In this document: positions 23,162 to 33,942 of the stretch, piece by piece
Numbering within the stretch: position 1 is the stretch's first letter
How the letters are laid out: the number at the start of each line of letters is the position of its first letter
Origin: an uncultured Desulfuromonadales bacterium
Lineage (GTDB): Bacteria; Desulfobacterota; Desulfuromonadia; Desulfuromonadales; Trichloromonadaceae
Direction of reading: 5' to 3'
DNA: 43,863 nucleotides
Assembly: GCA_945787285.1 (NCBI GenBank)
Contig: CALZIC010000120.1
Location: 1-43,863 of the forward strand
Position numbers and translations under genes: made by a program
The notes under the pieces: model-generated
Databases searched by the model: none
Told to the model about the DNA's origin: nothing
What the model saw: only the letters and a program-made list of their open reading frames with translations

Positions 23162-24395
23162 TCACTCTGACGCCATCTTCACCAGTCTCGGGTCGAACCG
23201 GGCCACCGTTTCCACCAGATCGGTCTGGGCCGCCATGACCTCATCGATATCCTTGTAGGCCATCGGCACCTCGTCCAGTCCGGCGGAGAGCAGGGTCACT
23301 CCGCGCTCATCGAGAAAAGCGCGTGCCTGCTTCCAGGTGAAATTCTGCCTGGCAGCCTTGCGGCTCATTTTTCGACCGGCACCATGGGAGGCGGAGCAGA
23401 GAGAGTCGGGGTGGCCCTTGCCGCGAACCACGTACCCTGACGTCCCCATGGAACCCGGGATGATGCCGAGAACGCCCATTCCTGCCGGGGTCGCCCCTTT
23501 TCGGTGAACCACCACCTGCTCACCGTTGTGAACCTCATTCCAGGCGAAGTTGTGATGATTCTCCACATCGAGAAGGACCTCGGCCCCGAGATGGTCGGCG
23601 ATGTCACGGTGGATCAGGGCATGATTGGCCGCTGAGTAAAGGCCCATCAGTTCCATGGCATTCCAGTACCCCTGCCCTTCTTCGCTCTGCAGATCGAGCC
23701 AGGCCAGCGGCTGAAGCTGGTTCGGGAGCTCGGGATGCAGCTCACGAGCAACACGGCTGTAGTGTTCAGCGATCGAACCGCCGGTCCCCCTGCTGCCGCT
23801 GTGGCTGAGCAGGGCCAGGTAAGTGCCGGCCTCCAGCCCCAGGTCAGACTGCAAAAGGGTCAGTTCACCAAACTCTACAAAGTGGTTGCCGCTGCCGCTG
23901 GTGCCCAGCTGCTTCCAGGCCTTGTCCTTTAGGCCGCGGGTCAGGCGGGTTATGCTCCAATCTGCATCCATGACATCGTGCTCTTTGCGGTGTGAAAAGG
24001 TGGCCCCGACACCAAAAGAGGTCGATCGGCAGCCCGTACCCCTGATGCGCATCGGGCATCAGCGCGCCGGAGACCGAAACCGGCAACCTGCAGGCGTTTT
24101 CCATCTGCTCTACCGCACTCTGTTCAAGGTCGGTCCCCCAGCGGCAATAGGGAGCAGGATCCTGCCGATGATCGAAGCGGGCCCGGAACTCCTTGACCTC
24201 CTGGTAGGTGAGCGCAAAGGAGCCGAACAGCTCATGCTCAAGATAGTCCTGCGGATTATCAACGACCGCGGACATCATCGCCCGGATCGACTGTTTATCC
24301 TGGCCCGCCCTGGCCGCCTGAGCGGTGGCCTGCTGAGCCAGTTTCATCAGGGAGCCCTTGGGGACCCCGAGATTTGTCAATTCTCTGTTTTTCAT
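23162..24395 (-). pseudogene. rtcB: RNA-splicing ligase RtcB, split into two overlapping ORFs by a frameshift at an A4/T4 run (about 24014-24020)
   Basis: ORF 23865..24395 carries the N-terminal part ending MPDAHQGYGLPI. ORF 23162..24052 carries the rest: GSGNHF, HHNFAWNE, RKGATPAGMGVLGIIPGSMGTSGYVVRGKG, SHGAGRKMSR, MAYKDIDEVMAAQTDLVE. The frames switch right after the metal-binding PDAHQGYG motif. Confidence 0.85.
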
Positions 24396-25462
24396 TGTTG
24401 ATCTCCTTCCTTGCCCGTGATCCGGATCTCCCAGACCTTAGGCGCAACCTTCACCATGTCCACCCAGACCTTAGGCGCAACCTTCACCATGTCCACCTCG
24501 ATATCCAGGAACTCTTTGAGTACTTCGATATTGGTCGTGGTATGGCGACTGGGCGCCAGGGTCCGAAATGCCCCGCCACCGGCCAGGGCCATCGGCAGCA
24601 GCAGCTGGTCGGCCAGGTGCTGCCCCACCGGGACCCCTGCGGCCAGATAGTCCTGAACCTGCTTGACGGTCTGGCTCGCCACCTTTTCGGCCCGCACACG
24701 CCATTCGCCGAAACCGGTGAAGATCTCGGTCAGGTTTTCGCTGGCCACCTCAAGGGTGAGGATATTGCCCGGACCTTGCGATTCAGCGACTTCTTCCACC
24801 TGCAGAGATTCCGCTGGCCAGGAGAGCTTGTTGCGCACCACTCGGATTTCACGCTCGCCGATGCTACGTGGCAGCCTGGCGACCATGGCACTGGCCCGAC
24901 GCCCGACGATATCGCCCCGTTCGAGCAGGCTGATCCTCGAGAAACGGGACACCGGTTCAATATGAACGAAAAACCTTCCGCCACCGGCCGGGTAAAAACC
25001 TGGCCGTTCCAGGGTTGCGGACACCTTGGGCCCCATGCGCTGCAGCAGGGGGAGAAAGGACCGGGCCAGAAAATCGAATGGGGGCGCATGAGGGTTATGG
25101 GTTCCCCCTTCCAGAACCAGTTCCGAAGCCCCTTCCGCCAGGCAAAGGGCCGGCAGAACAGTCTGCAGCACCAGGGTGCAGCTCCCGGCCGTGCCTATGG
25201 AGAAATGATACTGCCCCGCCTCGATGGCCTTGGGAATAAAGACCAGGTCTTGAGAACCGATCCGATTCCCTTCAACCTCGGCAGCACCGACCTCCACTGC
25301 GGCATTCACCGCGGTAAGGTGTTGCCTCATCAGCCCGGGCTTGTTGCGCCGAGCGCGGATTTTTTCGATTCGAAATGGTTTTCCGGTCACCAGGGAGAGG
25401 GCCAGCGAGCTGCGCAGAATCTGTCCGCCTCCTTCGCCTTGGGACCCGTCAATGGTAATCAT
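24392..25462 (-). CDS. rtcA: RNA 3'-terminal phosphate cyclase
   Basis: 356 aa; MITIDGSQGEGGGQILRSSLALSLVTGKPFRI N-terminus and RtcA-wide similarity; 4-bp overlap with rtcB start. Contains an in-frame 33-bp tandem duplication near the 3' end (24432-24497). Confidence 0.9.
   Translation of the reverse strand: MITIDGSQGEGGGQILRSSLALSLVTGKPFRIEKIRARRNKPGLMRQHLTAVNAAVEVGAAEVEGNRIGSQDLVFIPKAIEAGQYHFSIGTAGSCTLVLQTVLPALCLAEGASELVLEGGTHNPHAPPFDFLARSFLPLLQRMGPKVSATLERPGFYPAGGGRFFVHIEPVSRFSRISLLERGDIVGRRASAMVARLPRSIGEREIRVVRNKLSWPAESLQVEEVAESQGPGNILTLEVASENLTEIFTGFGEWRVRAEKVASQTVKQVQDYLAAGVPVGQHLADQLLLPMALAGGGAFRTLAPSRHTTTNIEVLKEFLDIEVDMVKVAPKVWVDMVKVAPKVWEIRITGKEGDQQ
24432..24497 (-). repeat. 33-bp perfect tandem duplication (x2) inside rtcA 3' end, in frame (VDMVKVAPKVW x2)
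   Basis: cagaccttaggcgcaaccttcaccatgtccacc repeated twice in direct sequence. Confidence 0.9.
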
Positions 25463-25523
25463 GGGTTGACTCCTTGCATTTCAGTATTCATGGAATGAGG
25501 CTTACCCAGGAGGCTGTCGGGCT

Positions 25524-25690
25524 TGCCGGACCGAAACGAGAAATTGGATGTTCGAGGCCAGTTTTTCTTGAATTTGAGAGCGAATAGCAGGGCTATTTGT
25601 CGAAAATTGTCGAGGATATGGGCCGATCAGCCTATTTCGGGCTATTTGTCGAAAATTGTCGAGGATATGGGCCGATCAGCCGATTTCGCA
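25524..25690 (+). repeat. dispersed repeat copy B with internal 49-bp tandem duplication (25591-25639 and 25640-25688)
   Basis: the first ~95 bp match 16194-16289; the unit ggctatttgtcgaaaattgtcgaggatatgggccgatcagccNatttcg is repeated twice in tandem with 1 mismatch. Confidence 0.85.
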
Positions 25691-25732
25691 GTCGGTTTCT
25701 GGTAAGTCCGAGAGCCTCCTAGCATACAGCGG

Positions 25733-26839
25733 TCAAAGAAGATTGACCACCCGCTCGGCAAGACCTTTTTCGCCAAGAACGACATTCATTTTGGAACTGC
25801 CGGCCACCTTCTCCAGCACTTCGAGTTCGCGCAGTCGCATGAGGGTCGGGTTGTTCTCCAGCAGGCGGGCCGTATTGGCCTGGCTGCGCATGGCGGCCGT
25901 CTCTTCGCGGCGCACGATGAGGTTGGCCTCCGCGGCCTTGCGTGCCTGGATGACCTGGTTGAGCAGGTCTTTCATCTCCCCCGGCAGGATCAGATCACGG
26001 ATGCCGAGGCGGATGATTTCTATACCGAAACTGCCTGAGCGCTGGCGCAAATTCCCCTCGAGTTCGCCAGCCACCCGGTCCTTTTCACTGAGCAGGGCAT
26101 CGAGGCTGCAAGTTCCGATGATCTCCCGCAGGGCCAGCTGGGCCTCGCGGTAAAGCGCCTGCTCGATGTTTTCAACGGCCTTCACCGCCCGGTGCGGGTC
26201 GGTAACCCGGTAGACGGCCTGGGCGTTGAGACGCAGGGTGACGTTGTCTGCGGTCATGATCTCCTGGCCCGAGATGTCGAGGACCGTCTCACGCAGGTCG
26301 ACCTGCTGAATCCGCAGCCGTCCGGCATTCTTCCAGAACATGTAGCGCCCCGGACCGAAGGTCTTTACGTATTCTCCGTCTTTGAAGAAAACCGCGGCAA
26401 AACCATCTTCGACAACAACACTCTCCAATTTTTCATCGGCCCCCGTCGACAAAAGAATTGCGCTCATCTCCTTGTGCTCAAACCGCACCTGACGTGCATC
26501 AACGATTTCAATCTTGATATCGCGAAGTCCTGTCCAAAGGGCATAGATCCCAGGGCCAACAACCTTGGCAAAACGCCCTTCGATCCAGACCAGGGCTCGC
26601 TGGCTATCCTTAAGGTCGAGCACCACGGCCTCTTCCCCGAGAACGCCCGCCTTGACAATCAGATCAAGCTTGTCGTGCACCAGCCAGGGATCACGCTGGG
26701 AGACTACATCGACCCGGATTTTGTTCAACGGATCGGTAAACCAGTGACGACCGGTGCCCAGAAGACCCTCGAACTCCTTATCTTTGAACAACAGACCCTT
26801 TTCGTGTGAGCGGACTTTTACGCTGCCGATTCCAATCAT
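25733..26839 (-). CDS. SPFH/Band 7 domain protein (stomatin/prohibitin-like) with C-terminal coiled coil
   Basis: SPFH-like core with coiled-coil tail (ARKAAEANLIVRREETAAMRSQANTARLL). Start at MIGIGSVKV (ATG 26839) with ggaggagaaggag RBS. Confidence 0.75.
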   Translation of the reverse strand: MIGIGSVKVRSHEKGLLFKDKEFEGLLGTGRHWFTDPLNKIRVDVVSQRDPWLVHDKLDLIVKAGVLGEEAVVLDLKDSQRALVWIEGRFAKVVGPGIYALWTGLRDIKIEIVDARQVRFEHKEMSAILLSTGADEKLESVVVEDGFAAVFFKDGEYVKTFGPGRYMFWKNAGRLRIQQVDLRETVLDISGQEIMTADNVTLRLNAQAVYRVTDPHRAVKAVENIEQALYREAQLALREIIGTCSLDALLSEKDRVAGELEGNLRQRSGSFGIEIIRLGIRDLILPGEMKDLLNQVIQARKAAEANLIVRREETAAMRSQANTARLLENNPTLMRLRELEVLEKVAGSSKMNVVLGEKGLAERVVNLL

Positions 26840-27036
26840 CTCCTTCTCCTCCTGTTGTCTCCATCCACCCTGGAAATAGGTGGCCCTCGGGGGGCGAGAC
26901 TTCCTCACGTTAGCCACATCGCCGATGCGGAGTGTCGTTTAAGAATATGCGCCCGGTTGTTTTCAGCAGGGGTCGCGGCCATCGGTTCGACTTTTGTTGC
27001 CGCCGAAGGCCGGGTGGCTCTGATCGCTGCCGTCTG

Positions 27037-27050: not shown

Positions 27051-27193
27051 AAACGGAATCCACGCACTGCATAGCATCTGACCGATGTTGTCCTCGACCG
27101 GACCGGGTCCAATCGATTCGGCTGACGGGAAGCCTCTCCCCCCTCAGGCCGGGTTGGTGACCGCCTGCGCGGTCAAGACGGGTTAATAGCCCG

Positions 27194-27264
27194 TTGTTGG
27201 TGCAGGACTCGAACCTGCGACTCCCGTGGGGTACACGGTGCTCTACCGACTGAGCTAACCAGAG
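27194..27264 (-). pseudogene. tRNA-like element / probable degenerate tRNA (intact D-arm and T-arm; 5-nt anticodon loop; acceptor stem only 4 of 7 bp)
   Basis: minus strand reads CTCTGGT-TA-GCTC-AGTCGGTA-GAGC-A-CCGTG-TACCC-CACGG-GAGTC-GCAGG-TTCGAGT-CCTGC-ACCAACA-A. Canonical GCTCAGTCGGTAGAGC D-arm and GGTTCGAGTCC T-arm. Anticodon loop has 5 nt instead of 7. No CCA. Confidence 0.5.
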
Positions 27265-27535: not shown

Positions 27536-29146
27536 ATGAAAAAATCAGTCGCCATCGGCCTGCTCGGACCGGTTCTGGATAACGGCAAAGGCGCTAAGCG
27601 CTGGGAGCGCTGGCGCCCCTCGGTCGCACTCTGTCAACACGAGGAGCTGCTCGTTGACCGTTTCGTCCTGCTCTACCAGCGGCGCTACGCCAGCCTTCTG
27701 GAACGCATTGTCGAAGACATTCGCCAGGTCTCCCCGGAAACGGAAGTCGTCCCTCAGCTCATGGAGTTCGACGACCCGTGGGATTTCGAAAACGTCTTTG
27801 GAGCCCTGCACGACTTCGCCCGTGAATATCCGTTTGATCCCGACCAGGAGGACTACCTGGTACATATCACGACAGGCACCCATGTGGCCCAGATCTGCCT
27901 GTTTCTGCTGACCGAGGCGCATTATTTCCCGGCCCGCCTGATCCAGACCAGCCCCTCGCGCAAAGCGGACCAGCTTGCCTCGGGCACCTATTCCATCATC
28001 GACCTCGACCTTTCGCGCTACGACCGCATTGCCACCCGTTTCAGCCAGGAACAGCGGGATGATATCTCGTTTCTCAAATCAGGCATTGAAACCCGCAATG
28101 CCCGATTCAACCATTTGATCGCGCAGATCGAGCAGGTGGCGATCCGGTCGGTGGACCCGATTTTGATTACCGGCCCAACAGGTGCAGGCAAGTCAAAACT
28201 GGCCCGACGGATATTCGAACTGAAAAAGGCGCGGCGCCAAATCCCAGGGAACTTCGTCGAGGTCAATTGCGCCACCCTGCGTGGCGACGCCGCCATGTCC
28301 GCCCTCTTCGGCCATCGCCGCGGGGCGTTCACCGGCGCTTTGCAGGACCGTCAGGGGCTGCTGCGTGCTGCCGACGGCGGGATTCTCTTTCTCGATGAAG
28401 TGGGGGAGTTGGGACGGGATGAGCAGACCATGCTGCTGCGCGCCGTCGAGGAGAAGCGTTTTATGCCCCTGGGCTCGGATGCTGAAACAGAGAGCGATTT
28501 CCAACTTCTATGCGGTACCAATCGGGACCTTTACCAGGATGTGGACAAGGGGCGCTTCCGTGAAGACCTGCTGGCCCGGATAAACCTCTGGACCTTCGCT
28601 CTGCCGGGGCTGGCCGATCGCCCCGAGGATATCGAACCCAATCTCGATTACGAGCTCGACCGGTTCACGAGCCGCACCGGTGCCCGCATCACCATCAACA
28701 AAGAGGCGCGCCAGCATCTGCTCCGTTTCGCCACCTCCGCCGAGGCCACCTGGCCAGCCAATTTCCGCGATCTCAACGGCGCGGTCACGCGCATGGCCAC
28801 CCTCGCCCCGACCGGCCGCATCACCACCGAAACCGTAAAGGAAGAGGTTGCGCGTCTTCACCATGCCTGGCGGTCGCGAGGTGGAAATATAAAGGAGGAA
28901 ATTCTTCTGGAAGTACTCGGGCAGGGTGGGATTGAAAAACTCGACCTGTTCGACCGGGCCCAACTGGCCGAGGTGTTGCGCGTCTGCCGCGCCTCAAAAA
29001 ACCTTTCGGAGGCGGGCCGCACCCTGTTTGCCGTGTCGCGCCAGGAGAAAAAGCAGGCCAACGACGCCGACCGACTGCGCAAGTATCTCGCCCGGTTTGA
29101 CCTGAACTGGGAAAGCGTCCGAAGCACGGGGTCCACACCTCATTAA
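27536..29146 (+). CDS. rtcR: sigma54-dependent transcriptional regulator RtcR (N-terminal CARF domain, AAA+ sigma54-interaction domain)
   Basis: 536 aa; collinear with E. coli RtcR as recalled (MKKSVAIGLLGPVLDNGKGAKRWERWRPSVALCQHEEL..., DYLVHITTGTHVAQICLFLL, ARLIQTSPSRK, GPTGAGKS Walker A, GAFTGA, FREDLLARINLWTF). Confidence 0.9.
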   Translation: MKKSVAIGLLGPVLDNGKGAKRWERWRPSVALCQHEELLVDRFVLLYQRRYASLLERIVEDIRQVSPETEVVPQLMEFDDPWDFENVFGALHDFAREYPFDPDQEDYLVHITTGTHVAQICLFLLTEAHYFPARLIQTSPSRKADQLASGTYSIIDLDLSRYDRIATRFSQEQRDDISFLKSGIETRNARFNHLIAQIEQVAIRSVDPILITGPTGAGKSKLARRIFELKKARRQIPGNFVEVNCATLRGDAAMSALFGHRRGAFTGALQDRQGLLRAADGGILFLDEVGELGRDEQTMLLRAVEEKRFMPLGSDAETESDFQLLCGTNRDLYQDVDKGRFREDLLARINLWTFALPGLADRPEDIEPNLDYELDRFTSRTGARITINKEARQHLLRFATSAEATWPANFRDLNGAVTRMATLAPTGRITTETVKEEVARLHHAWRSRGGNIKEEILLEVLGQGGIEKLDLFDRAQLAEVLRVCRASKNLSEAGRTLFAVSRQEKKQANDADRLRKYLARFDLNWESVRSTGSTPH

Positions 29147-29206: not shown

Positions 29207-29896
29207 ATGCTCAAAGTGATCTTCGCCATATTTATCCTGCTGACGAGCCCAGCCTCCCTCCTTTCTGCCGAGGAGGGAAGCATATGCTATGGGACGACCA
29301 GCAAAGGGCGACTGGAGGGAGGGGTTTCTTTTCCGACATCCGGCAACAACTATAAAAGCTACAGCACTCTGGGCAACCTGCTTGGCCGGACGTATGTTCA
29401 CAGCAGCGTTCAGAAAGTCGTTCTCAATGCTTTCACAACCCTTGAGAAAAGCTATCCCGATAGAGTCTTTATGTACGGTGAAACGGGCTGGAAAAGCGGC
29501 GGTCGATTCAAACCGCACAAAACACATCAGAACGGGCTTTCCGTTGACTTTATGGTTCCGGTATTGAACAGCGACAAACAGTCAGTTTATCTGCCGACCA
29601 GTCCGTTCAATAAATTCGGTTATGACATCGAATTCAATGATCGAGGACAATACGAAAATTACACCATCGATTTTGAGGCAATAGCCGCCCACCTCGTCGA
29701 ACTTCACAAAGAAGCAAGGAGCTCCAGTATTGATATCTGGCGGGTTATTTTTGCCCCCAAGCTACAGCCACAGCTGTTCAGCACCAAGCATGGTACCTAT
29801 CTGAAAAAGAATCTGGAATTTTCCAAACGGCCATCCTGGGTTCGCCACGATGACCATTACCATGTTGACTTCAAGCTCCCATGTGAAAAACTCTAG
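29207..29896 (+). CDS. mepA: penicillin-insensitive murein endopeptidase (peptidase M74, MepA-like) with signal peptide
   Basis: 229 aa; signal peptide; LAS-type zinc motifs HKTHQNGLSVDF and HDDHYHVDF matching MepA's HASHQNGLDVD and HRAHMHVRL. Confidence 0.7.
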   Translation: MLKVIFAIFILLTSPASLLSAEEGSICYGTTSKGRLEGGVSFPTSGNNYKSYSTLGNLLGRTYVHSSVQKVVLNAFTTLEKSYPDRVFMYGETGWKSGGRFKPHKTHQNGLSVDFMVPVLNSDKQSVYLPTSPFNKFGYDIEFNDRGQYENYTIDFEAIAAHLVELHKEARSSSIDIWRVIFAPKLQPQLFSTKHGTYLKKNLEFSKRPSWVRHDDHYHVDFKLPCEKL

Positions 29897-29986
29897 TGGC
29901 CTGTTTGGTTAATCGCGTCGATTAATTCTGAGGCATTTTTGACCCTGTCAAGGCGCACCGACGCAGCCCTAGCTGAGCTTAAGTCA
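29892..29986 (+). repeat. ~95-bp direct repeat R1 (about 85 percent identical to R2 at 31545-31640), immediately after the mepA stop
   Basis: ctagtggcctgtttggttaatcgcgtcgattaattctgaggcatttttgaccctgtcaaggcgcaccgacgcagccctagctgagcttaagtca aligned against R2. Confidence 0.8.
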
Positions 29987-30053
29987 TTTCCGGCTGAGGC
30001 TACCCCCCCCAAAAAAAAATTACAAATGGGTTTATAACCCTAAATAAGGTTCT

Positions 30054-30142
30054 TACCACAGAGGCACAGAGCCACAGAGCAAGGCAGAGATTTTGCCTTT
30101 ATTAATCGATTTTTCCTCTGTGACTCAGTGTCTCTGTGGTTG
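30054..30142. repeat. long imperfect inverted repeat built from tandem SCACAGAG octamers (arms ~26 bp, 3 mismatches, ~30-nt spacer)
   Basis: accacagaggcacagagccacagagc ... (rc) accacagagacactgagtcacagagg; preceded by a C8A9 homopolymer tract at 30003-30019. Confidence 0.7.
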
Positions 30143-30177
30143 CTTTGATATTTTCGGCCTCAACCTTCTTTTGGGTT

Positions 30178-30220
30178 ATAAAACCGAAAACAAAAGCCAC
30201 AGGAGTTATCTGTGGCTTTT
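30178..30220 (-). terminator. rho-independent terminator downstream of the 402-aa ORF
   Basis: AAAGCCACAGgagttatCTGTGGCTTT hairpin followed on the minus strand by ttgttttcggtttt. Confidence 0.6.
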
Positions 30221-30262
30221 GAAATGCTGATCAAAATAGGGTTTGGCTATAGTCGCATCAAA

Positions 30263-31471
30263 TTAAACCTTAACCGCACGCTCCCGAAGATACTCAACCT
30301 GTTCTGGTAAAAGCGGATCCATCACTTTGTACCTGGCAGGTATTTCATCCTCCACCGCTGAAATGTAGTCAGGACCCAGACAAGCGTTAAACACCGACCA
30401 GCCCACATTACCTAGAATTTCCTCATTTTCATGATCATAAAGAGAGACTTCGTCAGTCAACGGCAAATATGTAGGAATGTTCAAAGTGTAAACCGAAAAG
30501 GTCATGATTCCAGCCTCGCTATTAGTCGCCTGGAATTTCGAAACAAAAACCTCCTCTCCTACTTGCGCCTGCAGATGCTCTTTCTGCTCATCATATTGCG
30601 TAAAAGCTTCTTTCACACGTTGGAGGGACGCAGCTTGTCGACCAGGTTCACCCTCAAGCGGCAACCATTGCTTCCAAAGCCCATCGTTACTTTTTTGCCA
30701 GAAACTTTGGCTAAAGGGCCTGTGATTTTCAGAGAACTTTTCCCCAATCGCGATCATTCTCAATAAAGTTTCATCCGTCCCCTGGTCTGTGACCAAGCAA
30801 ATAGAATGGGACGGTGCAAAAAATATCGGATTCCCATCAAAAGGAATACGGACATTATCGTCAGCCGCAACGATCCGCGCAAAATCATAGTCATCTTGAT
30901 ATGTTGACATCCAAATGTGCGGCTCCACCTGTTCCCACTGATCTAACCCAGTGGCTCTTACCAAGGCAGCACCAGCTATCCGAAGGCCTTCTTCTTTTGT
31001 AATCCCAGCTTTTTCTATATCTTCATTTTTGACGGTGGATATGGATTCTTCGTTGTCGGAAATCAGCTCCAATAACGCCTCGCCAATTCTAAATAGTGAT
31101 AAATCTGTCTGCTCATACCCTTTTGAGGCCATCATTTTTTTTCTCAAAGAGATTTCAAAATCGGTGCGTACTCGTATTGCAAGTGAGTTCATGAAATCGT
31201 CTGGGTCAAACACACGGGGAGAGAGCAGTTCGTTAAGAAGCCGCTCAATAGATGGAGCTCTCTCTTTTCTTCCAAGCTCTTTCATTTTCATGAAAATGTT
31301 GCCCAGGAAAATGCTGGTGGGGGCCTTGTCCCGACCTCTCTCCTCGACCGACAGAGTCACTTCGCGGGCCTCAGGCTTATATTCAATCACCAATGAAGGA
31401 TCAATATACTTGGCAATACGACCAATATCTTTGGCTAGCTTCTTCTCGGTATATCGAAACATTTTAGTCAT
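30263..31471 (-). CDS. hypothetical protein, 402 aa, no recognised domain; low-GC gene flanked by direct repeats R1/R2
   Basis: long ORF with coherent codon usage, terminator downstream, AT-rich relative to flanks; no family recognised from sequence. Confidence 0.6.
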   Translation of the reverse strand: MTKMFRYTEKKLAKDIGRIAKYIDPSLVIEYKPEAREVTLSVEERGRDKAPTSIFLGNIFMKMKELGRKERAPSIERLLNELLSPRVFDPDDFMNSLAIRVRTDFEISLRKKMMASKGYEQTDLSLFRIGEALLELISDNEESISTVKNEDIEKAGITKEEGLRIAGAALVRATGLDQWEQVEPHIWMSTYQDDYDFARIVAADDNVRIPFDGNPIFFAPSHSICLVTDQGTDETLLRMIAIGEKFSENHRPFSQSFWQKSNDGLWKQWLPLEGEPGRQAASLQRVKEAFTQYDEQKEHLQAQVGEEVFVSKFQATNSEAGIMTFSVYTLNIPTYLPLTDEVSLYDHENEEILGNVGWSVFNACLGPDYISAVEDEIPARYKVMDPLLPEQVEYLRERAVKV

Positions 31472-31961: not shown

Positions 31962-32321
31962 TTATTTCACTTCGGCCGCAGGTGTCATGATCGCGGCGTA
32001 CTCAGCGGCATCCAGGTTACCGTCCTGATTAGCGTCGGCTGATTCAAAACTCAGCTGCAGCGCATCACTGGCGCCAGCTTCTTCCTTGCTGATAGTGCTG
32101 TTCTGGTCAACATCCAGGGCTTCAAAGATCGCATTCCGCTCCTCAGCCACGCCCTGCTCCTCAGCCACGCCCTGCTCCTCAGCCACGTTCTGCTCCTCAG
32201 CCACGTTCTGCTCCTCAGCCACGTTCTGCTCCTTAGCCACACCCTGCTCTTGGGTTGGGGCACAAGCGGCACAAGTAAGCATCAGGGCAGCAAGAAGAGT
32301 CAAAATTACATTTTTGTTCAT
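31962..32321 (-). CDS. lipoprotein with seven 6-aa tandem repeats (VAEEQN) and two EF-hand-like Ca-binding loops
   Basis: Start at MNKNVILTLLAALMLTCAACA (lipobox LTC, aaggag RBS). Then 7 x VA(K/E)E(Q/R)(N/G) encoded by 18-bp tandem repeats at about 32115-32240. Then DVDQNSTISKEE and DANQDGNLDAAE EF-hand loops. ORF-track start 32546 is likely too far upstream. Confidence 0.65.
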   Translation of the reverse strand: MNKNVILTLLAALMLTCAACAPTQEQGVAKEQNVAEEQNVAEEQNVAEEQGVAEEQGVAEERNAIFEALDVDQNSTISKEEAGASDALQLSFESADANQDGNLDAAEYAAIMTPAAEVK

Positions 32322-32628
32322 TTTTTTAGCTCCTTCTAAAGGGTCTGTTGAAATGCCATATTGGCTGTCTATTCTACCCTTCAGCAACCGCTGTGCCATG
32401 ATAGTTTTATCTACAAAAAACGATGCCTTACATTGACCCGCCAGAATTTCTGCCTTGCTTGGGGAAAATTTCTGTTCGCCGGCTGCGACAGATAGAAGGG
32501 GTCGGCCATAAAAGGGGCGCAAAAACAACAAGTTCGTTTGTCTCAAAATAGCGACCGCTCATGGTAGTGCATGAATCTTCAAGGGGAATGTGATCCGGAT
32601 TACGATCCCTATAATTTTCACTTTTTCC

Positions 32629-33942
32629 CACTACTGTCCGGTTAAAAAAGTTTGTACGTCCGTAACCTCTTGATTCTTTTTGTTCTTTGACATAACTGTT
32701 CTTTTTTCGATTTGAATTTGAGTATGCTGGCACCTTCCCGCGACTTGAGGAGGGGACCAATGAATTCTGGCAAAACCGTTTTCAGGCAGCTACTCGAGAT
32801 TCTCCCACGACATGAATTCAACGTTTGCGTGCGTCGCTATCGCGGTGAGTATCGGGCCAAGACTTTTTCCACCTTCGATCAGTTCCTCTGTCTTGCCTAT
32901 GCACAACTGACCGGGCGTGAAAGTCTGCGTGACATTGAAACCTGCCTAAACTCCCAAAGGGAGAAGCTTTACCATGTTGGGTTTCGAGGTAGCGTGTCTC
33001 GGGCAACGCTTGCCGATGCCAATGAGCGAAGGGACTACCGCATTTTTCAGGATTTTGGACACGTCCTGATCGGCATTGCGCAACGTCTGTACCAAAACGA
33101 GCCCCTTGCTATCGAATTGAAGCAGCCCCTTTATGCCTTCGATTCCTCAACCATCGACCTTTGTCTTTCTCTGTTTCCATGGGCTGAATTCCGAAAGACG
33201 AAGGCGGCGGTTAAAATGCACACTCTGATTGACCTACGTGGCTCAATTCCGACGTTCGTGGCCATCACAACAGGCAAGGTTCATGATGTCAGAATGCTGG
33301 ACGAGGTTCCGATCCATGAGGATGCTGTTTATACAATGGATCGAGGGTACATCGATTATGCTCGGCTCTATGCAATTCATAAGCAGTCAGCATTCTTCGT
33401 GATACGGGCCAAGGCCAATCTGCGTTACCAGCGACTGTACTCGCAACCGAAGGACAAGGCCGCGGGGATCCGGGCTGATCAGGTCATAACCCTGGGGACG
33501 CAGAAATCGAAAGAAGGCTATCCCGAACGACTTCGACGGGTCAGTTATGTTGACAAAGAGCGGAACAAGCGGCTGGTTTTCCTCACCAACCACTTCGATA
33601 TTTCAGCACGCACAGTTGCCGATATCTATAAGCAGCGCTGGCAGGTGGAGCTCTTCTTCAAATGGATAAAACAGCATCTGCGGATCAAGTCGTTCTACGG
33701 TACGTCGATCAACGCCGTTAAGAGCCAGATCTGGGTTGCCCTGTGCATTTACCTGCTGGTGGCTATAACCAAGAAGACGCTTGGCATACCTTGCAAGCTC
33801 TACACTTTTCTACAGATTATTGAGGTCAATTTGTTTGAGAAAAAGCCCATTTCATCGCTGGTTGCAGAGGCACTTAAACAAACCACAGACAGCCTCGAAT
33901 GTAACCAGCCGAATTTATTCACAAGTTAACCGGACAGTAGTG
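32629..33942 (+). mobile_element. IS4-family insertion sequence (1314 bp) with perfect 17-bp terminal inverted repeats CACTACTGTCCGGTTAA
   Basis: IRL 32629-32645 and IRR 33926-33942 (reverse complement identical); single DDE transposase ORF inside; flanks share only a tttttc motif, no clean target-site duplication. Confidence 0.8.
32760..33929 (+). CDS. IS4-family DDE transposase
   Basis: YKQRWQVELFFKWIKQHLRIKSF motif typical of IS4/IS5-superfamily DDE_Tnp_1; start at MNSGKTVFRQLL with gaggagg RBS. Confidence 0.85.
   Translation: MNSGKTVFRQLLEILPRHEFNVCVRRYRGEYRAKTFSTFDQFLCLAYAQLTGRESLRDIETCLNSQREKLYHVGFRGSVSRATLADANERRDYRIFQDFGHVLIGIAQRLYQNEPLAIELKQPLYAFDSSTIDLCLSLFPWAEFRKTKAAVKMHTLIDLRGSIPTFVAITTGKVHDVRMLDEVPIHEDAVYTMDRGYIDYARLYAIHKQSAFFVIRAKANLRYQRLYSQPKDKAAGIRADQVITLGTQKSKEGYPERLRRVSYVDKERNKRLVFLTNHFDISARTVADIYKQRWQVELFFKWIKQHLRIKSFYGTSINAVKSQIWVALCIYLLVAITKKTLGIPCKLYTFLQIIEVNLFEKKPISSLVAEALKQTTDSLECNQPNLFTS

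Follow-up and report, generated by a model that had tools for sequence, protein, structure and literature searches.

An octamer-built inverted repeat between two convergent genes of a Desulfuromonadales contig, a probable copy of a dispersed palindromic element

The window analysed here is a 43,863-nucleotide stretch of contig CALZIC010000120.1 (assembly GCA_945787285.1) from an uncultured Desulfuromonadales bacterium, and the element in question is a long inverted repeat at positions 30055-30140, next to a C8A9 homopolymer tract at 30003-30019. The repeat is probably a degenerate copy of a widespread, dispersed and inserted palindromic element that resembles repetitive extragenic palindromic (REP) sequences and would depend on a mobilising or binding factor. 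Judged by the sequence of its arms, the family occupies intergenic sites in at least 13 bacterial phyla and on phage contigs. In the window, the repeat is no switch but a passenger in the 3' region of convergent genes; the C8A9 tract is unrelated to the octamer family and most likely devoid of a switching role.

The octamer hairpin and its dispersed family

A preliminary description of this DNA reported an octamer-built inverted repeat with a spacer of about 30 nt, some 35 bp past the C8A9 tract. Direct reading confirms the tract and the repeat, and the locus is laid out as follows.

29207-29896, + strand: Peptidase_M74-like gene, 229 aa (Pfam PF03411, E = 1.5e-10)
30003-30010: C8 homopolymer, read directly
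30011-30019: A9 homopolymer, directly after C8, read directly
30003-30019: C8A9 double tract, a local feature outside the repeat family, read directly
30028-30051: outer inverted repeat, left arm (24 nt; 88% complementarity with 30162-30185)
30055-30082: 5' arm ACCACAGAGGCACAGAGCCACAGAGCAA (the '>' arm), read directly; matches the family pattern exactly
30081-30099: small internal hairpin AAGGCA/TGCCTT, beginning within the 5' arm and running into the loop
30083-30112: loop between the arms, 30 nt, unconserved; folds
30113-30140: 3' arm TTCCTCTGTGACTCAGTGTCTCTGTGGT (the '<' arm), one mismatch to the pattern on the - strand
30162-30185: right arm of the outer inverted repeat, partner of 30028-30051
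30191-30221, - strand: canonical bidirectional terminator hairpin with a 12-bp stem and a 7-nt loop, then TTTTCGGTTT on the - strand
30263-31471, - strand: 402-aa gene of unknown function, without a Pfam match

Each arm holds three SCACAGAG octamers, and the two 28-nt arms are 86% complementary and 30 nt apart. The 5' arm parses as A-CC-ACAGAG-G-CACAGAG-C-CACAGAG-CAA, that is, as three tandem octamers (Tandem Repeats Finder: period 8, 3.1 copies), and the 3' arm as TT-CCTCTGTG-A-CTCAGTG-T-CTCTGTGG-T, in which CTCAGTG is the single core mismatch. The 23 core pairs comprise 20 Watson-Crick pairs, one G.T, one A.C and one other; outward of them ACC...GGT still pair, after which pairing is broken (TT/TG). 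With its G and C spacers, its CTCAGTG unit and an outer stem that stops after ACC/GGT, the window copy is somewhat decayed. When up to three mismatches to the pattern CACAGAGNCACAGAGNCACAGAG are allowed, the two arms are the sole matches in 43.9 kb, with none expected from 100 shuffles. Outside the element the bare heptamer CACAGAG shows no enrichment: it occurs seven times in the window against 4.4 expected, and five of the seven lie within the arms.

The repeat had been proposed to form a cruciform or a large RNA hairpin, and the predicted fold is indeed very stable. The minimum free energy (MFE) of the RNA is -45.7 kcal/mol on the + strand (z = -6.4) and -44.3 kcal/mol on the - strand (z = -6.9), and none of 200 shuffles folds as well. 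The outer inverted repeat encloses this hairpin and pairs in the + strand DNA fold, not in the - strand RNA MFE structure; it is locus-specific and not common to other family loci. The preliminary description had missed this outer repeat, the hairpin in the loop, the bidirectional terminator hairpin and the convergent arrangement of the genes.

The two convergent genes are separated by a spacer of 366 nt that contains the element, with the 5' arm 158 nt past the peptidase stop codon and the 3' arm 122 nt from the stop codon of the 402-aa gene, beyond its terminator. The repeat had been placed "downstream of the unknown gene"; as the genes converge, it lies downstream of both. The terminator hairpin at 30191-30221 serves the 402-aa gene and is separate from the octamer element, which, as had been said, is explained neither by the adjacent open reading frames (ORFs) nor by a canonical terminator. 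On the + strand a T-rich stretch, TTGCTTTGATATTTT, follows the octamer hairpin, so that some terminator activity is conceivable; the terminator scan made no call there. The only plausible local effect of this copy would be a stable structure at the 3' end of the peptidase transcript.

No close relative of the window contig turns up in the protein collection or among metagenome contigs. For the 402-aa gene, identity reaches only 46% in the best homologue, which lies outside any shared synteny, and the homologous loci carry no family member; no metagenome contig shares the flank of the window element. Neither an E-value scan of the region nor a gathering-threshold scan of the window finds a bacterial Rfam family for it. 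The sub-threshold Rfam matches at 29850-30300 are spurious eukaryotic microRNA precursors (best mir-999, 30 bits, E = 1e-4), a case of how long, clean bacterial hairpins can give misleading sub-threshold matches of this kind.

A search for the octamer elsewhere, which the preliminary description had asked for, proved the productive check and found the arms to be abundant in non-homologous loci. A scan of one genome per species (596 Gb) with the pattern CACAGAGNCACNGAGNCACAGAG matched at least 120 loci, where the 20 specified bases would be expected to match about once by chance. By record title, these loci belong to Acidobacteriota (43), Planctomycetota (15), Betaproteobacteria (15), Alphaproteobacteria (8), Spirochaetota (8), Gemmatimonadota (7), Bacteroidota (5), Verrucomicrobiota (3), Bacillota (3), other Pseudomonadota (3: Thiotrichales, Mariprofundaceae and one unclassified), Chloroflexota (2), Nitrospinota (2), Desulfuromonadales/Geobacterales (2), Actinomycetota (1) and a Methanotrichaceae metagenome-assembled genome (MAG; 1, possibly contamination), with two unclassified. 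Many family loci come from MAGs, and isolates also carry the element: Magnetospirillum sulfuroxidans, Pelomonas caseinilytica, Propionivibrio limicola, Roseateles aquae and three Undibacterium.

The arm pattern also occurs in 119 stretches of IMG/VR contigs, some with three or four hairpins, and the carrier contigs encode portal, capsid, terminase and tape-measure proteins. In isolate collections, one Bacteroides record labelled as a plasmid and one gut phage carry the family; a Bacteroides finegoldii record has a variant with 9-nt units that abuts the miaB stop codon. None of 5,426 complete E. coli genomes carries the family, and 15 control loci taken for other reasons show no arm even at up to four mismatches. 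What the window shares with the other loci is the arms only, not the loop, the outer repeat or the C8A9 tract.

Paired hairpins, 98 at first and 169 in total, follow one plan. From the outside inwards, it consists of complementary outer bases, three CAC-R-GAG-R octamers (sometimes two to five or more per arm), often a few A/T pairs, the loop, and a mirror arm of Y-CTC-Y-GTG units. The outer bases are lineage-specific, typically TNAC...GTNA, with TCAC/GTGA, GAAC/GTTC, TAAC/GTTA, TAGC/GCTA and CTCA/TGAG all represented, and the stem extends outwards by a median of 6 bp. Outer stem positions -1 to -5 are Watson-Crick paired far above shuffles (0 of 1,000 reach the observed level, a statistic that kinship among copies inflates) and use several pair types; at position -2 these are A-T (102), G-C (33) and C-G (15). 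Loop length varies between 6 and 647 nt (median 45), and loops are unrelated between taxa. The window copy, with its 30-nt loop, falls within the family range.

The heptamer and its spacer behave differently. The six fixed heptamer positions are 93-100% invariant across the 169 hairpins, partly by ascertainment, since units 1 and 3 were set to CACAGAG in the search pattern. At the spacer, one arm always carries a purine and the other a pyrimidine, and the two match little more often than expected (81 against 72.5 at position 15), so that regular A.C or G.T mismatches are common. The order is also constrained: the '><' arrangement, with the purine arm first and the same reading on both strands, is that of 54 loci with a single pair and of most loci with multiple copies, against '<>' in three; the window copy has it too. 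Moreover, orthologous phage hairpins in diverged carriers have identical heptamers, spacers that differ without compensation, and loops that cannot be aligned, in flanking coding DNA that is about 80-85% identical (by eye on the alignment). This pattern shows that the heptamer sequence itself, beyond its pairing, is maintained, by selection or by homogenisation.

Several observations bear on how copies multiply and grow. Other genomes hold several copies per 8 kb, and copies inside one genome share loop and flank, as in the Gemmatimonadota loops ATGAAGTTGT; tandem duplicates of the element occur in a Thiotrichales MAG and a Mariprofundaceae MAG. Loops contain nested hairpin repeats, some of them built from other 8-9-nt tandem units (CACGAAG, CGCAGAT, TAAGAAGT, ACGGAA), and the resulting "onion" palindromes reach 650 nt and an MFE of -383 kcal/mol. 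Three Acidobacteriota (L017 6020-6675, L113 1380-1480 and L047 6070-6140, with L numbers denoting the loci compared) share a series in which a CACAGAG arm is followed inwards by CATCGCA, CACGAAG/CACAAAG and CGCAGAT blocks; in L017 this series makes up the 650-nt layered palindrome with the MFE of -383 kcal/mol. This shared series would fit growth by nesting or, alternatively, one longer composite element. Different, well-paired REP-like hairpins lie within or beside the octamer hairpin in an alphaproteobacterium (L004 4222-4340, GTCATTCCCGCGAAAGCGGGAATC...) and an acidobacterium (L022 6270-6420, TCATTCTGAGCGCAGCGAAGAATCC...), and other hairpin repeats seem to land preferentially in hairpin loops. 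Two viral contigs carry octamer microsatellites with no inverted partner nearby: (CACAGAGT)13 at L213 82-184 and seven units at L171 71-125.

Placement between genes, gain and the homopolymer tract

Most copies whose setting can be assigned sit between genes that are read in the same direction. Among the 169 hairpins, with genes called by a crude ORF heuristic filtered on GC content at third codon positions (GC3), 81 lie between co-directional genes, 12 between convergent and 4 between divergent ones, and the rest lie near contig ends or far from any call. The distance from the upstream stop codon to the first heptamer has a median of 15 nt (about 5-10 nt to the base of the stem), and that from the last heptamer to the next start codon a median of 17 nt. 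Copies occur within core operons, between nuoD and nuoE (L095) and between sucC and sucD (L120), and among phage late genes, where the hairpin stands between genes and is followed by a normal ribosome-binding site. No protein family recurs beside the copies in all-against-all ORF clustering of 120 and then 239 loci, which returned only housekeeping and phage structural families. Additionally, 14 canonical family loci give no Rfam match at gathering level.

The clearest gain is found at the gene pair sucC-sucD. In Methylophilaceae TrH-20 (L120, 4600-4836), the element and its short flanks form a 236-nt spacer between the two genes, whereas sucC and sucD overlap by 4 nt in ten related syntenic loci (L121-L130, Methylotenera and others); this difference marks a lineage-specific insertion into a translationally coupled pair. 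At the same locus, sucD has no obvious Shine-Dalgarno sequence within 20 nt of its ATG, and the C-terminus of SucC differs from that of its relatives. Among phages, contigs L133, L157 and L239 share an orthologous site that a hairpin occupies (L157 and L239 do not differ there), and the related phage L250 has unrelated sequence at that site and lacks the hairpin. Three scans with phage flanks for empty sites returned only filled contigs. Arrival of copies by insertion is shown for the sucC-sucD case and would extend to the family in general by inference.

Whether the element acts as DNA or as RNA is hard to score from orientation directly, because a palindrome gives the same RNA hairpin in either direction of transcription. 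Two indirect measures are available. Mismatches in the mRNA sense comprise 78 A.C and 50 G.U, which gives no sign of a strand-specific RNA constraint, and core deviations number 19 in the 5' arm and 28 in the 3' arm, which shows no asymmetry between arms relative to gene direction.

Solo arms between co-directional genes do show a bias: they have CACAGAG in the sense direction in 15 cases against 4, and many abut a start codon at 0-15 nt. The purine arm offers GAGG or GGAG every 8 nt and contains no T, hence no start or stop codon, and the pyrimidine arm is its complement and resembles an anti-Shine-Dalgarno sequence. The bias is read as a filter on which half survives decay, and it serves as a lead only. 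Solo purine arms with three CACAGAG units stand against start codons, for example CACAGAGATG and CACGGAGAAATG, and some make up the entire intergenic spacer; sites are L100 2516-2538, 3961-3983 and 4954-4976, L162 849, L180 3070, L232 6566, L236 4384, L083 189 and L020 2958. Such arms may serve as T-free leaders rich in Shine-Dalgarno-like motifs.

The C8A9 tract presents a different picture. Nowhere else in the window do two homopolymers of at least 6+6 adjoin; the window has six runs of at least 8 against 2.7 in shuffles. The tract lies 107 nt past the stop codon of the + strand gene and 244 nt past that of the - strand gene. Gene and promoter/terminator scans of the window find no promoter-like site and no credible ORF around it, so phase variation has nothing to act on. 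No double homopolymer tract lies within 150 nt of any of the 169 family hairpins, and a run of at least 7 lies that close to 8 of them, which is about background. On the - strand the tract reads T9G8 and begins 8 nt after a small, weak hairpin (30040-30028) flagged by the terminator scan; T9 may thus be a vestigial U-tract.

Competing explanations and their meaning

The favoured reading, a decayed copy of a dispersed inserted element, carries a possible mechanism. The heptamer core with its free purine spacers would form an array of recognition sites for a protein that spreads or maintains the element, and hairpin geometry would matter, be it in a cruciform or in single-stranded DNA. A transcript of the element would inevitably fold into a hairpin of about -45 kcal/mol that, like REPs, could act as a barrier to 3' exonucleases or as an attenuator of the flanking cistrons. 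A bolder extension is tentative and clearly less probable than the reading itself: either a dedicated, horizontally transferred machine maintains the element, for example an iteron-binding nuclease or recombinase acting on DNA hairpins, or a conserved host factor reads it as an orientation-independent intercistronic signal that phages exploit.

A number of points weigh against the favoured reading. The window contig holds a single copy in its 43.9 kb. The sucC-sucD case is the only clear gain event, and its edges are not sharp, with 33 and 25 extra nucleotides flanking the hairpin; a near-identical Methylophilaceae strain known from a metagenome keeps the element unchanged and so gives no sign of current mobility. 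Direct repeats of 3-8 nt at the stem ends, as expected of a target-site duplication, are no commoner than in shuffled flank pairs. A phmmer search with approximate queries for RayT and the IS200 transposase TnpA finds no match to either in the 2663 ORFs of 120 loci, and no transposase or transposase-sized ORF lies between any pair of arms at the family loci. The conservation of phage heptamers could reflect a host function or gene conversion instead of the binding site of a mobiliser. The ascertainment in heptamer units 1 and 3 and the crude gene calls behind the placement counts count on the same side.

Selection on the RNA is the strongest competitor, possible yet doubtful. It holds that the element is an orientation-independent intercistronic or 3' untranslated stem-loop kept in hosts and phages as a processing site, a decay barrier, a factor-dependent terminator or a translational insulator in which the purine arm mimics a Shine-Dalgarno sequence and the pyrimidine arm masks it. 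The hairpin is very stable on either strand, copies stand 3-15 nt past stop codons and ahead of the next gene's ribosome-binding site, phage late operons included, and the sense bias of solo arms abutting start codons would fit. In E. coli, REPs no more than 15 nt from a stop codon are said (by Liang, Rudd and Deutscher, in 2015) to affect expression of the upstream gene. The excess of A.C over G.U mismatches in the mRNA sense, however, is the opposite of what selection for RNA pairing would leave, and the arms lack the asymmetry in deviations noted above. Inspected flanks show no U-tract after family hairpins, and no Rfam family covers them; pure selection for structure would also permit compensatory changes in the heptamer, and none is seen. 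In the window, a - strand transcript should already end at 30191-30221, before it reaches the element.

Protein binding to duplex DNA is an unlikely alternative by comparison. Here the arms would be binding arrays for a chromosomal protein, such as a global regulator or a nucleoid-associated protein, with one subunit per 8-bp unit and no need for a hairpin. A strict heptamer with free spacers and a free distance between arms suits this idea, as does the 8-bp period, which cooperative ribbon-helix-helix repressors use, for example at the metboxes of MetJ. A proposal of IHF or HU binding also already exists in the literature for Geobacter class 2 sites. Recognition of duplex DNA does not need the strong covariation of the outer stem, however, nor the nearly obligatory '><' order (at least 54 loci against 3). 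Divergent promoter regions are avoided (4 against 81 co-directional settings), no gene family is associated, and copies sit in phage late operons and in core operons such as sucCD and nuoD-E. One core in at least 13 phyla would further require an equally conserved unknown protein. In its local form, as a transcription-factor array at this locus, the idea came from the preliminary description, and it fails on the same placement and gene-family evidence and on an arm spacing that varies from 6 to 647 nt.

Two further explanations have very little in their favour. That the C8A9 tract and the inverted repeat form a phase-variable contingency locus, or a recombination site of the attP/attB type, had been suggested at the outset and is now highly improbable. 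C8 and A9 are physically good substrates for slippage, their pairing is unique in the window, and an IS4-type transposase gene lies 2.6 kb away. Against this, convergent genes end on either side of the tract, there is no ORF or promoter for it to switch, and such tracts are absent at the 169 other copies; no integrase or other recombinase is nearby, and the arms, which are not repeated at the insertion sequence (IS), recur in hundreds of unrelated intergenic contexts with no recurrent neighbour family and no homopolymer partner. Less probable still, and in effect refuted, is a chance palindrome derived from a microsatellite, or an assembly artefact. Octamer arrays can expand, as the 13 units of L213 and the 7 of L171 show, and most loci come from MAGs. 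Nevertheless, no chance match is expected in the window, hundreds of copies share one oriented architecture with unique flanks, complete chromosomes included, and isolates of Magnetospirillum, Pelomonas, Propionivibrio, Undibacterium, Roseateles and Bacteroides carry them. One and the same copy was also recovered independently in two assemblies, and the 15 control loci have no arm.

If a single factor reads or spreads the element, it would be a new and widely shared one, with a bearing on how operons are expressed in most soil and freshwater bacteria. REPs and other dispersed palindromes are as a rule lineage-specific and, where the mechanism is known, depend on a domesticated transposase. [quoted passage not shown] The family would also matter for annotation and assembly: its hairpins resemble microRNA precursors to covariance models and create spurious GTG-started ORFs, and long perfect palindromes break contigs. 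It is the family, rather than the window copy, that is worth following up.

Other features of the window and comparison with known systems

Elsewhere in the window, the rtc region shows several unusual features. A tRNA-like gene at 27193-27264 (-) lies between rtcR (27536-29146, +) and a divergent SPFH-rtcA-rtcB operon (23162-26917, -); ARAGORN calls it tRNA-Gly with the unusual anticodon ACC, and it matches the Rfam tRNA model at 39 bits. In Salmonella, tRNA-like Y RNAs precede rtcBA in the rsr-yrlBA-rtcBA cluster, and the window layout recalls that arrangement; by this analogy, the gene may encode a Y-RNA-like or substrate-mimic RNA rather than a decoding tRNA. RtcB looks split at 23162-24395 (-): a 296-aa ORF covers only positions 133-423 of PF01139, and a 176-aa ORF (23865-24395) overlaps it upstream; an insertion, a frameshift or a fault in the assembly could be the cause. 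The surroundings of rtcA contain two perfect tandem duplications, one of 33 nt (24430-24497) and one of 49 nt (25590-25688).

Other short repeats occur as well. The gene for a small EF-hand protein (ORF 31962-32546, -) contains an 18-nt unit repeated 6.2 times at 93% identity (32138-32249). Beside it lies the mobile element mentioned above:

32712-33929: IS4-type transposase gene (DUF4372 + DDE_Tnp_1), adjoining the EF-hand gene, without octamer arms

In an unrelated genome (L256, 3720-3770), a tandem 10-mer (GCCCGTGGCT) repeated four times lies directly 3' of a homologue of the 402-aa gene, another short-unit array at the 3' end of a gene.

Comparison by eye with consensus sequences shows no fit of the octamer arms to LexA, DnaA, sigma-54 or IHF sites, to uptake signal sequences, or to 16S rRNA by complementarity; nor do they fit integron attC sites (R'/R'' boxes are absent), Chi-like palindrome protection, or CsrA sites, whose GGA would be buried in the stem. 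Identity with intrinsic terminators was considered and rejected, as family hairpins continue with GTGAA, GTTAA or GTTCA and not with T-runs. Closer in form are the cyanobacterial short tandemly repeated repetitive (STRR) heptamer arrays, which are also intergenic, also built from tandem 7-8-nt units and also often paired in inverted orientation; their unit sequences differ.

REP, BIME and REPIN sequences of E. coli and Pseudomonas are close parallels in organisation, as short, high-copy extragenic palindromes, often in inverted pairs 20-100 bp apart that form a larger hairpin (PMC3733652). They too are found at gene 3' ends and within operons, are not flanked by target-site duplications, and occur nested or clustered (Di Nocera et al. 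2013, PMC3733652). The units themselves are unlike: a REP is an imperfect palindrome of 20-40 nt, whereas an octamer arm consists of three direct repeats with no internal palindrome and, being written in A, C and G only (or T, C and G), cannot pair with itself. REPs also have a conserved, unpaired GTAG/CGTC tag, whereas the outer TNAC/GTNA bases of the octamer family are variable and pair with each other; GTAG at the outer end is seen in one phage subgroup only. REPs further have a cognate RAYT, an HUH Y1 transposase flanked by the repeats in the same genome; among the ORFs of 120 octamer loci, the search described above gives no RAYT match. Finally, REP sequences are specific to lineages, whereas at least 13 phyla have one heptamer core in common. 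Prokaryotic MITEs such as Correia and Chunjie resemble the family in having terminal inverted repeats (TIRs), in being noncoding, in inserting between genes or into operons without breaking them, and in forming folded RNA (PMC10969869). In contrast to them, the octamer family has no target-site duplication above chance and an interior that is unconserved between taxa, at a length of about 55-700 nt; no parent IS with matching ends is seen, and its "TIR" is an iteron array.

The nearest relatives have been described in Geobacter metallireducens as "class 2 predicted global regulator binding sites", three tandem copies of TCTCCGTS[Y] in 47 sequences forming 21 pairs (Aklujkar 2009, PMC2700814, Additional file 8). 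The sites are paired on opposite strands at variable distance and listed as exclusive to the genome of G. metallireducens (PMC2700814), and binding of IHF or HU is offered as an untested guess (Aklujkar et al. 2009, BMC Microbiol 9:109, PMC2700814). Class 1 (GTTGCTYN x4) and class 3 (MTYCTGA x5) sites of the same genome have the same architecture (PMC2700814); like the octamer family, they are intergenic arrays of 7-8-nt units, often in inverted pairs, with different unit sequences. Literature searches by arm and consensus strings found no prior description of the element beyond Aklujkar 2009. To judge from the units, the octamer hairpin family corresponds to the class 2 multicopy sites: TCTCCGTS[Y] is the complement of CACGGAGA, a G variant of the window unit, and both are multicopy, intergenic and paired on opposite strands; the Geobacterales loci L049 and L070 of the genome scan have the same arms. 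Hairpin geometry, spread across phyla, presence in phages and insertion polymorphism do not feature in the accessible part of the Geobacter account. Dispersed extragenic palindromes as such are already known; what is new here is the breadth of phyla, the strict heptamer with a free spacer, and the presence in phages.

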